Shown piece after piece: positions 19,001 through 63,242 of a stretch of 64,000 bases of DNA. The stretch's first letter is position 1; every line of letters begins with the position of its first letter. The translations under genes and the position numbers were made by a program. The notes under the pieces are model-generated. The model was not told where the DNA came from, did not search any database, and saw nothing but the letters and a program-made list of their open reading frames with translations. Origin of the DNA: Parcubacteria bacterium C7867-001 (GTDB lineage Bacteria; Patescibacteriota; Minisyncoccia; Phycocordibacterales; Phycocordibacteraceae); contig LFCK01000001.1 of assembly GCA_001189095.1 (NCBI GenBank), positions 20,133 through 84,132 of the forward strand, given 5' to 3'.

Positions 19001-19073
19001 GCCGCCTTAGCTCAGTTGGTAGAGCAACACTTTTGTAAAGTGAAGGTCCCCGGTTCAAGCCCGGGAGGCGGCT
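19001..19073 (+). tRNA. tRNA-Thr (anticodon TGT)
   Basis: A manual cloverleaf fold gives a 7-bp acceptor stem (gccgcct/aggcggc), a D-arm (gctc-agttggta-gagc), an anticodon loop tt-TGT-aa with U33/A37, and a T-arm (cccgg-ttcaagc-ccggg). CCA is not encoded. Confidence 0.85.
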
Positions 19074-19505: not shown

Positions 19506-20198
19506 CTACTTCTTGGTTGTCGTAGCAGTCGAAGTTGCGGACTTAAAGAGTGCTTTCGGGAAGAGTTTCTGGAAGTCGTCGAGGTGCGTGAAGCCGTAGG
19601 AGACTTTGTCCTGAATCACAAAGGCGGGGAATTGAGGCTTTATTTTCTCCACGGCAATGAGCGTCTTCAGTGCCGAAAGGTCGAGGTCGTAATCGAAGGA
19701 GTAGACGCGCAACGTCGGATACGTTTGGCGCAGGTAGGAGAGCGCGTAGCCTGCTTTGTCGCAGGTCGTGCAGGCTTGCGGATCATTCGAATAGAAATAG
19801 AGCGCGGTCACTGGTTTGAGGCCGCACGAAGAGGAGAGTTTCTTCGTCAAAAGATAATCACGAATCTGAAGCAAGGTGTACTGCTTCTTGAGTTGAAGTA
19901 CTTGCGGGTCGCGGTTTCCGGCGCGACCTTCTGCAATACCGAGGCGGTCACCGAGATCGCTCACTTCGCGCGAGAACTCAGTTCCCGAAGCAATGTCTTC
20001 GCACGGCGCTGACTCAAGGAGTGCGAACTGCGTTTCAAGCGAGAGGGTGTCGGTTGCAAGTTGGTTCTGAATAGCGGAGAGTTCCGCAAGGCGCTGCTGG
20101 TCGAGGTAGTTGATGGCGTACACGATGCTGCCGATGATGGCGAGTGTTATAAGGAGCGCGAGGAGCGCGTTGCGGGCGGGAAGTGAAAGCGGCTTCAT
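19506..20198 (-). CDS. Membrane-anchored protein with a coiled-coil and a CxxC motif (possible thioredoxin-like fold)
   Basis: There is an N-terminal TM helix (ALLALLITLAIIGSIVYAI). ACTTCDKAGY carries a CxxC motif. No firm family assignment is possible. Confidence 0.5.
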   Translation of the reverse strand: MKPLSLPARNALLALLITLAIIGSIVYAINYLDQQRLAELSAIQNQLATDTLSLETQFALLESAPCEDIASGTEFSREVSDLGDRLGIAEGRAGNRDPQVLQLKKQYTLLQIRDYLLTKKLSSSCGLKPVTALYFYSNDPQACTTCDKAGYALSYLRQTYPTLRVYSFDYDLDLSALKTLIAVEKIKPQFPAFVIQDKVSYGFTHLDDFQKLFPKALFKSATSTATTTKK

Positions 20199-57072: not shown

Positions 57073-57372
57073 ATGAAAGAGTTTGATGTTCCTGAAGGAA
57101 TGACGTCTGAACTGGTGGCGTGTACATTTGCGGCGTACCTCTTAGGAAGCCTCTTCAACAGCAACTGGCAAAGATCGGTCTACGGTCCATTTCGAAAAGA
57201 CTATCGAGAAGGCACTGACTATGAAAGATGGCAGCTCGATAACACAAACGACTACTGGCTCCATATTGAAGGAAATAAAGCAAAACTTGTCTCTCGCTAC
57301 GATCGCCAAGATGTTCTTGAGGCGATGTTGACCCTCTTCAAGCTCCGGTTTCCGCAACGCGCTCACGCGTAG
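57073..57372 (+). CDS. Hypothetical protein (99 aa)
   Basis: An AAGGAG RBS is present. The ORF is flanked by terminators at 57006-57040 and 57381-57410. Confidence 0.5.
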   Translation: MKEFDVPEGMTSELVACTFAAYLLGSLFNSNWQRSVYGPFRKDYREGTDYERWQLDNTNDYWLHIEGNKAKLVSRYDRQDVLEAMLTLFKLRFPQRAHA

Positions 57373-59151: not shown

Positions 59152-60405
59152 ATGGCTAAGAAAAAGACCGTAAAGAAGAAGGCTTCTTCGAAATCCGCAA
59201 AGAAAGCGGGAAAAAAGTCTGCGCCCAAAAAGAAGAAGGTTGTTAAGAAAGCAGTAAAGAAGGTCGCAAAGCCGAAGAAGAAAGAGCAGATGAAGAACGT
59301 CGTCCGTGTGGCGGCGAAGGGTGCGCGTGCAAAAGCTGCGGCAGAGAAGGGAGACAAAGCAGAGCGTCTTCTTCAGAAGGGTAAGGAGCGCGGCTACATC
59401 ACTTACAGCGAAATTCTTAAGGAATTCCCGCACATCGAGGAAGATGTGCAGTTCCTCGATTCCCTCTACGAAAAGTTCTCATCGAATGGCATCGACATTC
59501 TCGAAGGCGGCATGCTCGAAGACAATGCCGACCAGTATCTTGCGACCCGCAATATCAAAGGTCGTGAGGGTGCGAGCTATGACTCCATTCAGATCTACCT
59601 TCGTGAAATAGGTCAGTACCCGCTTTTGACCGCCTCTGAAGAGCGTGAGCTCGCCAAGCGCATCGAGAAGGGAGAAGACGAAGCGCGCAACATCCTCGCT
59701 CGCTCGAACCTCCGCCTCGTGGTCTCTATCGCGAAGAAATACGTGGGCCGCTCGCCGGACCTCACGCTCCTCGACCTCATTCAGGAAGGAAATCTCGGTC
59801 TCTTCAAGGCTGTCGATAAATTCGATTGGAAGAAGGGCTACAAGTTCAGCACGTACGCAACGTGGTGGATTCGTCAGGCCATCACCCGCGCACTTGCTGA
59901 TCAGTCCCGCACCATCCGCATTCCGGTCCACATGGTGGAAACCATCGCGAAGTACAAGCAGATTTCCCGTCGCCTTTCGCAGGCCCTTGGTCGCGATCCG
60001 CAGCCGGAAGAAATTGCCGTAGAAATGGGTGTCGAAGTGGAGAAAATCTACCAGATCGAGAAGATAAATCAGGACACTCTCTCACTTGAGAACCCAATCG
60101 GTTCTGATGACGATGAGAAGTCGACCCTCGGTGACTTCATCGCAGACGACAAGATTCCGTCCCCGATTCAGGAGTCTTCTGAACGCATCCTTGGTGAGCA
60201 AGTCCGCGACATCCTCGACGACCTTTCACCGAAGGAGCGCAAGATTCTCGAGATGCGTCACGGTCTCCTCGATGGTGTGTATCACACGCTTGAAGAAGTG
60301 GGTAAGGAGTTCGGCGTTACCCGCGAACGCATCCGCCAGATTGAGGCGAAAGCTCTCGAGAAAATTAGAACTCATGAGAAATCCCGAAGACTCAAGAGTT
60401 ACTAA
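59152..60405 (+). CDS. rpoD: RNA polymerase sigma-70 factor with a Lys-rich N-terminal extension of about 50 aa in place of an acidic region 1.1
   Basis: Region 2 has [13 protein letters not shown]. Regions 3 and 4 are present. The N-terminus is [44 protein letters not shown]. The dnaG-rpoD synteny is conserved. Confidence 0.85.
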
Positions 60406-60632
60406 TTTTCTCTTTCGAAGATCCGGATACCCCAAGGGTACTTCCAATTTCCTAACTCGCTGTCGCTCCTAACGAAATTTGGGCGCGCACGAAAAGCCTC
60501 AAAATATCAAAGTAAACAACCAGTTTATTTGGGGAGGAAATACTGGTGCCTAATGGCGCGTGTGGACAAAAAACTCACCTGTTATAGAGTTTAGGTATCC
60601 GATAGCTATAACAACAGCCGGCACATACACGC

Positions 60633-61331
60633 ATGGCCATTTTTTCCAAAAAAAGAAGTCTAATATCAGGCGAGATTAGATACCGACCTACATTAACCTC
60701 TGCAAAAGGGGGTGTTGAGCTTGCAAAGCTACTTGAGGGAAAATTTCCTCATTGGCGAATTCGCAACGGACAGGACGTGGCACTTCTCGACGAAACAAAA
60801 AAGTGGCTGATCGAAATTAGATATAACTCACTTATTTTTCAAAATGAAGGCGAGGAAGCAGGAACAGAACTTATTGATCTCCTTGAGCTCGTGTTCAACG
60901 AAGTTAAGGAACATTTTGGCATAAGTGATTATTTACACGTAGGTTGTCGCAATAAGTCTGTTTACGCTTGCTCATTTCAAGAGAAAGACCTAGTTGATTT
61001 AACTTTCCGTAAATTGTATGGAAATACGTCCGTGCTTACTTCAATGTCAGGTGACAAATTAAGGGATACAGGTTTTGTACTAGATGCAACAAAGGGTGAA
61101 CTAAACACGCATGTTCAAATTGGTCCAGCAAAAGAAGGTCAGGCAGAAAATTTCATCAACAACCAATTTGATGTAGAAGATCTAGAAGGTAATAGCTTCT
61201 TAATGGTAGACGTGGACGTATTTAAGAAAACCTCCCTCACAAAGGAGAGCTGCATTAACGTACTGAAGGAGGCCGCCGCTGTAAATTCTGAAGTAACCTC
61301 AGGGTACATCGACTTCTTGTCTACAAAATGA
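60633..61331 (+). CDS. Island gene A: hypothetical protein (232 aa) with no recognisable domain
   Basis: The ORF has an AT-rich composition distinct from its surroundings. Its stop overlaps the next start as ATGA. Confidence 0.55.
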   Translation: MAIFSKKRSLISGEIRYRPTLTSAKGGVELAKLLEGKFPHWRIRNGQDVALLDETKKWLIEIRYNSLIFQNEGEEAGTELIDLLELVFNEVKEHFGISDYLHVGCRNKSVYACSFQEKDLVDLTFRKLYGNTSVLTSMSGDKLRDTGFVLDATKGELNTHVQIGPAKEGQAENFINNQFDVEDLEGNSFLMVDVDVFKKTSLTKESCINVLKEAAAVNSEVTSGYIDFLSTK

Positions 61332-61945
61332 TATTCCCAGTTCTACCGCCAGCCGACATAAACCTAACTAATTTTGCTGCTCAGCAGGGTGTGATTGATC
61401 GCAATAGAAAGACGTCTGAAAGCGCTTCAGTTGAACGTTCAAGCAAGGATTCAGAGCGTGTTGAGGTTGAGAGGAAAGAGATAACGGCGGAGAGTGTCGT
61501 TTCTGAAGATCAAACTGTCATTGAGGGTGTCGAATTCAAAGAAAGTGATAAAAGCTCTTCTTCAGTCAACGACCAATCGCGTGAGCATTTCTCCAACGAG
61601 GGCTTTGGCGATGCATATATAAAACACAGTACAGCAGCAGCAATATTGCAGATTAAGAATCTCATCGAGGAGTGGAATAAAAAAGGAACTAAGGATAGTA
61701 CCTCAGAAATAAGCCAAATAAAAACTACTCTTGAGGAATACGCACCCTTCTTTACAGAAAGACCGGAGTCAGAAGTCTTACTGGGAGGACTGGAGACTAT
61801 TTTTGATGGTGATAGATGGGAAAGACTCGATTCAGCTAAATTAACCTTGATATCCAGGCAGCTTGAGAACTTTCAAGCTGGAAATGTGAGATGGGAGTCA
61901 CTCAGGAGATTTGCTCGAGAGATTTACTCTGCCGAAATTGTCTAA
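61328..61945 (+). CDS. Island gene B: hypothetical protein (205 aa) with a Ser/Glu-rich disordered N-terminal half and a helical C-terminal half
   Basis: The composition is AT-rich. The gene is translationally coupled to A. Its stop lies 2 nt before the start of C. Confidence 0.55.
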   Translation: MIFPVLPPADINLTNFAAQQGVIDRNRKTSESASVERSSKDSERVEVERKEITAESVVSEDQTVIEGVEFKESDKSSSSVNDQSREHFSNEGFGDAYIKHSTAAAILQIKNLIEEWNKKGTKDSTSEISQIKTTLEEYAPFFTERPESEVLLGGLETIFDGDRWERLDSAKLTLISRQLENFQAGNVRWESLRRFAREIYSAEIV

Positions 61946-61947
61946 AT

Positions 61948-62718
61948 ATGGCGAAGAGACAGAAGGTTCTAATAGATACTTCTATTCAAATCGGAAAATT
62001 AAAATATAAAGAAATTAGAGAAAAAATAAGAGAAATCGCTGAAACAGAAGATCCCGGGACGTCCTTTTTTGTGCTGTTTGAGTTCAAGGTCGGAGTGATT
62101 CTAAGTTTTATTGAATATTGGAACTTTGTAAATATTTCAGAAAATGTCTCGAAGGCTATGAGTAGATGGTCCGAGAAATATAGTGTTAGAGACGTTAAAT
62201 ACTTTGTAATGTTGCAAGCGATACTGGCTGAGAAATTTGAAAACATCTCCACAGACAAAAAGAAGCATTTAAGACAAGTTGAATTTATCATAATGTTCAC
62301 CATTGAAAACTTCTTCGCAGATATTCGAGATATACCAGTTGGTGATTTTAGGTATGACGAAATAGTGCGTTATGAAATAAAATCACGAGTTGATTACCCG
62401 GGGTTTGTGAAATTGTGCTATGAGAAAAACGAGATGGTAGATCAAAGGAAGTTTTGGACAAAATACAGAGCGGAACTAGATAAATTGGTTGCTGATGCGG
62501 ACCTGGAGAAGTGCCACTCTTCATTACACGAAGCGTTAACTCGTATTCAATCTGATATTAAATATGCTCACATGGTGAAAACGAATAAATCTATTGGAGA
62601 CGCCGTAATAACAGTTGACAGTAGACATGATACTCGCATTCTCACAACAGATTCTTCGTTCGAGAAGTTGGCGCCGATTTTAGGAAAGACTTTTGAGAAG
62701 ATACCAAATAAATACTAG
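61948..62718 (+). CDS. Island gene C: expanded PIN-like domain protein (256 aa), putative nuclease
   Basis: QKVLIDTSI resembles the PIN beta-1 Asp motif. FVLFEF supplies a conserved Glu. GDAVITVDSRHDTRILTTDSSF resembles the PIN C-terminal motif. About 150 aa are inserted between these elements. Confidence 0.5.
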   Translation: MAKRQKVLIDTSIQIGKLKYKEIREKIREIAETEDPGTSFFVLFEFKVGVILSFIEYWNFVNISENVSKAMSRWSEKYSVRDVKYFVMLQAILAEKFENISTDKKKHLRQVEFIIMFTIENFFADIRDIPVGDFRYDEIVRYEIKSRVDYPGFVKLCYEKNEMVDQRKFWTKYRAELDKLVADADLEKCHSSLHEALTRIQSDIKYAHMVKTNKSIGDAVITVDSRHDTRILTTDSSFEKLAPILGKTFEKIPNKY

Positions 62719-62729
62719 GACTCTTTGGC

Positions 62730-63167
62730 TCAACTACTTTTCCTTCGATTCTCTCGAACAATCGTAATTATGAGAACGGTCTCAGCGAGCGCGCCAAGTA
62801 TTATCTCGTTAGCGAAAGGAAATTTAAAAAAGTGAAAGTCTGCGAGACCAAAGACCATCAGAATTCCTAGACACAGATAGAATCCCACAGCAGTCATCAG
62901 AGCTCCTTCTACAAGATCTAAAAAGAAGGATGTACTACTGCGCCGGCCCTTATAGGCCGCGCCGATAACAATTGAATTTGTAACTACAAATGGTCCAGTA
63001 AAGGCTATTGATAACAAAACGAGTTTAATCCAATCCAGTTGGAATACTTGATTGGGATTATATACGTACATGGCCGTTAAGCCTGGCAAAATAATTGCCA
63101 AAACAGCAAAGAAAGCAAGTAAAAATGATTTATCCTGAAATGTTCGAACCATTGATCTAACGCTCAT
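62730..63167 (-). CDS. Island gene D: four-TM membrane protein (145 aa), convergent with C
   Basis: Four hydrophobic helices are present. The composition is AT-rich like A-C. Confidence 0.5.
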   Translation of the reverse strand: MSVRSMVRTFQDKSFLLAFFAVLAIILPGLTAMYVYNPNQVFQLDWIKLVLLSIAFTGPFVVTNSIVIGAAYKGRRSSTSFFLDLVEGALMTAVGFYLCLGILMVFGLADFHFFKFPFANEIILGALAETVLIITIVRENRRKSS

Positions 63168-63242
63168 TCGTTTATTCTAACATCGACCGAATGGGCTCGC
63201 CTTCTTCATCGAAATTAGAGGGTTGGACGGTATACTGAGTCC

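Follow-up and report, generated by a model that had tools for sequence, protein, structure and literature searches.

The window analysed here is a 64,000-nucleotide stretch (positions 20,133 to 84,132 of contig LFCK01000001.1) of Parcubacteria bacterium C7867-001, a member of the candidate phyla radiation (CPR) whose 812-kb genome, of 53% GC, was reconstructed from a Hanford metagenome (PMC4508563). Downstream of rpoD the window contains an AT-rich island (60600..63200, not strand-specific; about 39.7% GC against a background of 54%) with four genes, A to D. Three of them, A, B, and C, form a conserved, translationally coupled operon that recurs elsewhere as a horizontally transferred cassette, and the third gene encodes a protein with a PIN fold and a conserved catalytic tetrad. 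Going by these features, we lean, with somewhat more confidence than doubt, towards reading A-B-C as a tripartite toxin–antitoxin (TA)-like or addiction module, in the broad sense of the term. The original prediction for this DNA had called the architecture one that it could not recognise, and indeed no PADLOC model of a known defence system matches any protein of the window.

The foreign origin of the island is established by its composition. Between 60613 and 63170 the GC content is 39.7%, compared with 54.3% (standard deviation 1.7%) in 2.56-kb windows elsewhere in the 64 kb (z = -8.8), and nowhere else in the window is there a 1-kb stretch below 46% GC. The GC content at third codon positions (GC3) is 0.36–0.39 in genes A to D and 0.60, 0.64, and 0.67 in dnaG, rpoD, and the PhnB-like gene, respectively. 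The drop in GC that had been noticed by eye is thus confirmed by calculation, as is the shift in codon composition relative to flanking and background genes, and it is because of the low GC (z = -8.8) and of a GC3 of about 0.37 against about 0.63 that we conclude that the island was acquired horizontally. Its 5' neighbour is an open reading frame (ORF) of 417 amino acids that we judge by sequence to be the sigma-70 factor gene rpoD, and its 3' neighbour is a PhnB-like gene (Pfam PF06983, E = 1.6e-30). The four island ORFs matched no recombinase or transposase family of Pfam or NCBIfam, the single tRNA gene detected in the window lies at 19001, with none within 40 kb of the island, and no meaningful direct repeats flank the latter. 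These results agree with the predicted lack of an integrase, transposase, or tRNA at the flanks, and the concurrent absence of a recombinase or transposase among the island ORFs, of a tRNA target, and of direct repeats does not fit a classical integrative genomic island. Rfam and TRF detected neither a hidden RNA antitoxin nor a repeat array inside the island.

All four ORFs are present where they had been predicted, A, B, and C on the forward strand and D on the reverse, and the first three are as tightly packed as had been described. Gene A (60633..61331, forward strand; locus tag ABA06_00410) comes first in the cassette, its stop codon overlaps the start of gene B (61328..61945, forward strand) as ATGA, and the stop of B lies 2 nt before the start of gene C (61948..62718, forward strand; ABA06_00420), in the arrangement TAA-AT-ATG. 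To place this organisation in context, we considered the bacterial contigs that carry a C homologue at 33–65% identity and enough upstream sequence; all of them show the triad. At least six independent metagenomic loci besides the window keep this order, with genes that overlap or abut (L001, L002/L003, L016, L019, L020/L021, and L022/L023), and a partial copy is found in L017. The proteins vary little in size across loci (232–237, 185–208, and 256–266 amino acids for A, B, and C). The co-occurrence and synteny of A, B, and C therefore hold, and the triad is established as a conserved operon.

What surrounds the triad is different at every locus. In the closest homologous lineage, L002/L003 (L002:129-2040, L003:1-40), the genes directly 5' of the cassette encode a restriction enzyme of NgoPII type and a C5 methylase, and two different samples show this arrangement. 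In L019 the neighbours are a cupin gene and genes lacking annotation; in L020/L021 the cassette is bordered by IF3-L35-L20 and, at its opposite end, by tmRNA-smpB-ftsH; L022 has genes for an SLH protein and MurB, and L017 has tRNA-Ile and secE. Housekeeping genes do adjoin the cassette, but they differ from locus to locus and form no conserved neighbourhood. The cassette is AT-richer than its surroundings wherever long flanks are available (L019, L020, L022, and the archaeal loci described below) and also in L002, with GC contents of 0.37 against 0.55 in L020 and of 0.31 against 0.43 in L022; in L021 the extent of the GC trough is exactly that of the three genes. The cassettes of L016 and L001 are not AT-richer than their flanks, which are short (326 and 316 bp). 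Because the triad is conserved, the flanks vary, and the cassette nearly always exceeds its flanks in AT content, the mobile or transferred unit is the A-B-C cassette itself, of about 2.1 kb.

In three independent bacterial loci a tRNA or tmRNA gene lies 125–190 nt past the stop codon of C (L021:6104-6502, tmRNA; L022:2449-2534, tRNA-Tyr; L017:1369-1443, tRNA-Ile). Two of these three RNA genes have their 3' end towards the cassette, the orientation usually seen where an island has integrated at a tRNA or tmRNA gene. Neither att-like direct repeats in L021 and L022 nor an integrase at the tRNA- or tmRNA-flanked loci were found.

Gene C encodes a basic protein of 256 amino acids (isoelectric point [pI] 8.6), a putative PIN-fold, VapC-like ribonuclease whose catalytic candidates are D10, E45, D218, and D235. 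We retained the start codon at 61948 (MAK[KR]Q), which is kept in the homologues and disfavours a longer ORF from 61891. Close relatives are rare: among 5.8 billion clustered proteins, word-indexed searching returned two homologues of C, at 62–65% identity, and a single close homologue of A. An exhaustive hidden Markov model (HMM) search of 1.84 billion representatives revealed 202 clusters of the C family at E <= 1e-3, of which 47 at E <= 1e-30, and nearly all matches are full-length proteins of 250–290 amino acids (250–300 in the family overall). No relatives of A or C were found in public genome contigs, no member of the C family turned up in viral contigs or in phage genomes, the latter searched with C by tblastn, and a scan of metagenome contigs recovered L001 alone. 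In an alignment of 114 family members, E45 and D218 are invariant (114/114), position 10 is acidic in 113 (D in 72, E in 41), and position 235 is D in 106 and N in 8; T11, R81, and I221 are almost invariant. The four acidic residues occur in the canonical order (D, E, D, D) and in PIN motif context, including in C of the window. PIN (PF01850) is also the sole Pfam family matched by more than one relative of C, although by only 7 of 114 and weakly (best E = 2e-4). C itself matched no model of NCBIfam, PHROGs, or PADLOC, and VapC chains among the PDB sequences reached only E = 0.6–2 against the family profile. The same kind of profile search against the PDB gave matches to PDE4 (E ~0.07), which we judged spurious.

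The predicted structure agrees with the motifs. With an alignment of 120 sequences, AlphaFold gave a model of C with a predicted local distance difference test score (pLDDT) of 96.9 and a predicted template modelling score of 0.93; a model from three sequences only (AlphaFold2, pLDDT 55) was discarded and kept out of the fold searches. The retained model is a Rossmannoid alpha/beta/alpha structure with a central parallel sheet that superposes on solved PIN domains. The first Foldseek matches in the PDB were HARP/PRORP mini-RNase P proteins and were non-significant (E ~0.5), and the viral structures of BFVD gave nothing. As modelled, C consists of a complete VapC-like PIN core and about 125 extra, mostly helical residues. 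Hence, the PIN hallmarks that had been pointed out fall at the indicated motifs and in a PIN fold, and the large insertion that had set C apart from a canonical VapC is present. C is a putative Mg2+-dependent PIN-fold endoribonuclease toxin.

Genes A and B encode orphan proteins. As had been predicted, they belong to no known family: single sequences and eight-sequence profiles found no relatives in Pfam, NCBIfam, PHROGs, or PADLOC, profiles built from shallow and from deeper alignments had no significant match among PDB sequences, and tblastn found no match on plasmids. Protein A (232 amino acids) is mildly acidic (pI 5.3), and its homologues are the first gene in L001, L002, L003, L016, L019, L020, and L022 (E from 1e-24 to 1e-94). 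Sixteen of its positions are invariant (E72, G104, R106, F115, L123, K127, D145, F148, D151, H160, G164, F179, D193, D195, L211, and Y225), and they are rich in charged residues (E72, R106, K127, D145, D151, H160, and D193-x-D195). The family TIGR04255 was considered for A and rejected, as none of eight A-family members matched it at E <= 10 in hmmscan; resemblance to SecB was likewise found by no search. Protein B (205 amino acids, pI 4.8) probably serves as antitoxin to C or as its partner. Its N-terminal half, 62% of which is polar or charged, is weakly conserved, varies in length among loci, and has a composition consistent with disorder. The C-terminal domain, of about 110 amino acids, is conserved, with W116, F159, W164, and F195 invariant, and is matched by the second gene of all CPR-type loci (E from 1e-10 to 1e-55).

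The C family extends beyond CPR bacteria. Contigs of archaeal type, identified by Sec61-beta, STT3/AglB, S8e, and an aCPSF-like RNase, bear C homologues at 23–27% identity (L005:6894-8765, L009:6831-8759, and L012:6393-8327; also L006-L008, L010, L011, and L013-L015). The homologue is the third gene of a tight cassette (175–199, 192–198, and 252–254 amino acids) that is AT-richer than its flanks and lies at varying sites. The first gene of the archaeal cassette (196–199 amino acids) passes the Pfam threshold for the COMM domain (26.7 and 23.0 bits, for a cutoff of 22.4). A 2026 paper describes prokaryotic COMMD-like proteins as having an unknown function and does not mention PIN neighbours; the PIN-linked cassette may give the archaeal ones a functional context. 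In one archaeal lineage (L005, L006, and L008) the cassette sits within a ribosomal-protein cluster, with rpl4 on one side and rpl23 on the other. In L007 (L007:2277-4518), an upstream flank of L012 type is joined to a third gene identical to that of L005 and to the corresponding downstream flank, which reflects either genuine recombination or a chimeric assembly caused by the cassette that both loci share.

Cyanobacterial plasmids (pCC7120gamma, pNPUN03, Scytonema plasmid2, and others, from Nostoc, Trichormus, and Scytonema) encode members of the C family of 284–301 amino acids that score 206–217 bits against the family HMM and keep all four motifs. Each of these genes sits behind a gene for a strongly acidic protein of 136 amino acids (pI 4.1–4.2), as in L024:5577-6870 (Scytonema), L025:5461-6732 (pCC7120gamma of Nostoc PCC 7120), and L026:5461-6732 (pNPUN03 of N. 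punctiforme). With parA/parB on one side and a tyrosine recombinase on the other, the pair occupies the plasmid maintenance region, and both of its genes are annotated only as "hypothetical protein", in cultured cyanobacteria. We regard it as a candidate plasmid addiction pair that is experimentally tractable. An hhalign comparison of the 136-amino-acid protein with the conserved domain of B aligned 71 columns in the expected register and is suggestive of a relationship. In the cyanobacterial clade, residues 161–234 of one member, P0097, align with the PADLOC model PDC-M42B, which has 138 positions (30 bits, E = 1.1e-7); these 74 residues make up only part of the helical insert. Among 120 relatives of C searched against PADLOC, this was the sole model with strong matches (two members); Csm6 matched two members at E ~0.01, and the remaining matches were single and weak. 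PDC-M42 is itself a candidate three-gene cassette embedded in BREX, DISARM, or type I restriction–modification (R-M) loci (bioRxiv 10.1101/2024.01.29.577857), and it may include a split or domain-level relative of the C family.

We favour the TA-like reading because the closest structural neighbours of the fold of C are TA toxins, because the charge pattern is typical of TA pairs (pI of 8.6–9.4 for C across loci, and of 4.6–5.4 for B in four of six), because the cassette behaves as a selfish, sporadic element, because distant relatives occupy plasmid stability regions, and because an R-M pair adjoins the cassette in one lineage. The effector would be C, a Mg2+-dependent endoribonuclease of VapC type whose helical insert probably gives specificity for a substrate or partner. 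B, which is coupled just 5' of C, is acidic, and joins a probably flexible N-terminal half to a conserved helical C-terminal domain, would most likely bind and neutralise C, and A, always the first gene and as well conserved as the other two, would be a third component that regulates or senses, or an accessory in control of the B-C complex. If B, and perhaps A, were lost or inactivated, C would be free to cleave RNA and arrest growth. The nuclease activity and toxicity of C, the antitoxin role of B, and any role of A are what we infer from these features. Several observations weigh against the reading. B is basic in the two other loci of the six, the size of A and its enzyme-like invariant residues are unexplained by a simple TA model, and no DNA-binding domain of antitoxin type (RHH, AbrB, HTH, or PhD) was found in A, B, or their homologues with Pfam and NCBIfam. 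C of the window has no Pfam match at E <= 1, hence no PIN score, and PIN domains also work in housekeeping RNA processing. As for the distant relatives, hhalign found no homology between the first two archaeal genes and A and B, and the link of B to its cyanobacterial counterpart is no better than P = 0.026.

The strongest competitor, which we consider possible but clearly less probable than a TA-like module, is a dedicated anti-phage abortive infection system rather than selfish addiction, in which A would sense a phage cue, B would restrain C, and the freed C would degrade RNA. A mobile, sporadic, AT-rich cassette with three components would suit such a system, as would the large conserved A with its invariant charged residues, the type II R-M pair next to the cassette in L002/L003, and the match of P0097 to PDC-M42B. 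PIN effectors also exist in validated systems, e.g., HEC-03 (bioRxiv 10.1101/2024.01.29.577857). However, a defence gene adjoins the cassette in only one lineage out of about eight contexts, the others having housekeeping flanks; no PADLOC model matches A to D (E <= 1), and the archaeal, cyanobacterial, and L020 proteins tested gave nothing significant. PDC-M42, for its part, is no more than a candidate, and the match is confined to part of the insert. We counted the missing phage and viral relatives as neutral for this alternative.

A broader proposal, more speculative still, is that A-B-C and its archaeal and cyanobacterial counterparts belong to an unrecognised "long-PIN" superfamily exchanged among plasmids and ultra-small symbionts, namely CPR bacteria and small-genome archaea, in which an insert-bearing PIN nuclease would be placed under interchangeable, non-homologous partners, with no VapB. 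In CPR bacteria these partners would be A and B; archaea would use a ring-forming COMMD-like protein with a helical one, and cyanobacteria a small protein of acidic character. If true, PIN toxins would be controlled by a new logic, the system might act against phages or in anti-host competition, and prokaryotic COMMD-like proteins would gain a first functional context.

We find it unlikely that the cassette is an imported housekeeping device for RNA processing, with C a tRNA or rRNA PIN RNase (HARP/PRORP-, Nob1-, or Fcf1-like) and A and B its specificity subunits. The non-significant HARP/PRORP matches of the model of C point in this direction, and so do the cassettes found amid translation genes (rpl4/rpl23, IF3/L35/L20, smpB/tmRNA, and tRNAs) and next to rpoD. 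Yet a processing enzyme does not fit the extreme sporadicity of the family (two close homologues of C and one of A in 5.8 billion clustered proteins), the composition foreign to the host at nearly all loci, the location that differs per genome, or the relatives on plasmids beside par genes.

Gene D (62730..63167, reverse strand) raises the question of whether the system has four genes, with D as a membrane effector or anchor. The encoded protein, of 145 amino acids, was described in the original prediction as having four transmembrane segments and the skewed composition of the island, and both descriptions hold: it contains four hydrophobic segments and has the GC and GC3 of the island. It also lies only 11 nt past the stop codon of C. 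However, D lies on the opposite strand, convergent with C and thus outside the operon, and no D-like sequence is present at any homologous cassette locus. Other genes follow C there, such as a Cys-rich ORF (L001), tmRNA/smpB (L021), tRNA-Tyr and the SLH protein (L022), or tRNA-Ile and secE (L017), and the GC trough of L021 spans the three genes alone. Searches with D gave only sub-threshold matches (none at E <= 1 in PADLOC; E > 0.1 in Pfam, NCBIfam, and PHROGs), and tblastn found no match on plasmids. The proposed membrane partnership is thus unsupported, a four-gene system is very improbable, and, because it has no counterpart elsewhere and is transcribed convergently, D is a co-imported or neighbouring membrane-protein gene outside the system. 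Least credible of all is the idea that C is a HAD-like phosphatase with a cap domain instead of a nuclease, a reading that would accommodate the Rossmannoid fold, the Asp that ends its first strand, and the helical insert, because position 10 is E in 41 of 114 sequences (D in 72) although the HAD nucleophile must be Asp, the DxDxT motif was not found in the alignment of C, and the four conserved acidic residues stand in PIN contexts, with PIN as the sole recurrent Pfam family.

The intergenic region between rpoD and A (60406..60632, forward strand; 227 bp, 45% GC) includes a weak sigma-70-like site (TGGACA-16-TAGAGT, 60563-60590); the count of promoter-like sites in this region does not exceed the chance expectation. 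The inverted repeat that had been described upstream of A does exist, but with arms of 8 bp, TGTTATAG at 60580-60587 and CTATAACA at 60606-60613, and a spacer of 18 nt, and not with 7 bp and 17 nt at 60581-60611, a shift of 1 nt. An inverted repeat of at least 7 bp arises in 25% of dinucleotide shuffles of the 227-bp spacer, and no counterpart of this one lies 5' of A in the homologous loci L002, L003, and L016. Because it is compatible with chance and not conserved, its suggested role as an operator is unsupported. A perfect 11-bp inverted repeat, GAGAAAATTAG / CTAATTTTCTC at 60358-60368 / 60402-60412, with arms 33 nt apart, straddles the stop codon of rpoD at the 5' border of the island and is a possible terminator-like hairpin or site of recombination; its single echo in Rfam is a spurious miRNA match. 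Farther upstream, an ORF of 99 amino acids directly 5' of dnaG (57073-57372) has no Pfam match.

Few mobile toxin genes are as common as those for PIN-domain toxins, and C defines an unannotated, insert-bearing PIN family of about 200 sequence clusters that is tied to two conserved orphans instead of VapB. Parcubacteria have reduced genomes in which few defence genes are recognisable, and the cassette adds a candidate toxin or defence module to the few seen in them. The relatives of C connect CPR bacteria with archaea and with cyanobacterial plasmids. Should the triad be shown to act in TA or defence, annotation tools such as PADLOC, DefenseFinder, and TADB would gain a new architecture, two orphan families would gain functions, and the archaeal COMMD-like proteins would perhaps gain a functional context; if it is an ordinary VapBC variant, its value would be limited to better annotation.

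VapBC is among the closest known systems. In the window B lies 2 nt 5' of C and is acidic where C is basic (pI 4.8 against 8.6); B is basic in two of six loci, and there is a third gene. C has 256 amino acids, compared with about 130 for VapC (about 130–150 for compact toxins), i.e., about 125 extra helical residues. There are three genes instead of two, A and B have neither a DNA-binding domain of VapB type nor similarity to VapB, and C of the window gives no score with PF01850. Because of the size of C, the number of genes, and the missing VapB-type antitoxin, the cassette is not VapBC proper. Three-component TA systems are known, e.g., omega-epsilon-zeta, paaR-paaA-parE, and toxin–antitoxin–chaperone (TAC) systems. 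The cassette resembles them in its three co-directional, packed genes with the putative toxin last, and the order regulator or accessory, antitoxin, toxin would fit A-B-C. It differs from them in that there is no sequence relationship and that A, with 232 amino acids, is far bigger than the TA regulators known so far and resembled SecB in no search. PDC-M42 likewise comprises three genes, and the distant family member P0097 matches PDC-M42B, but this match is missing for C of the window and its close relatives. In HEC-03, a VapC-like PIN effector acts in phage defence with a partner other than VapB (bioRxiv 10.1101/2024.01.29.577857); this partner is an ABC ATPase, of which there is none in A-B-C. 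HARP/mini RNase P, Nob1, and Utp24 share with C a PIN fold with extra helical elements. Overall, A-B-C would work like a PIN TA system while being a member of no described one.

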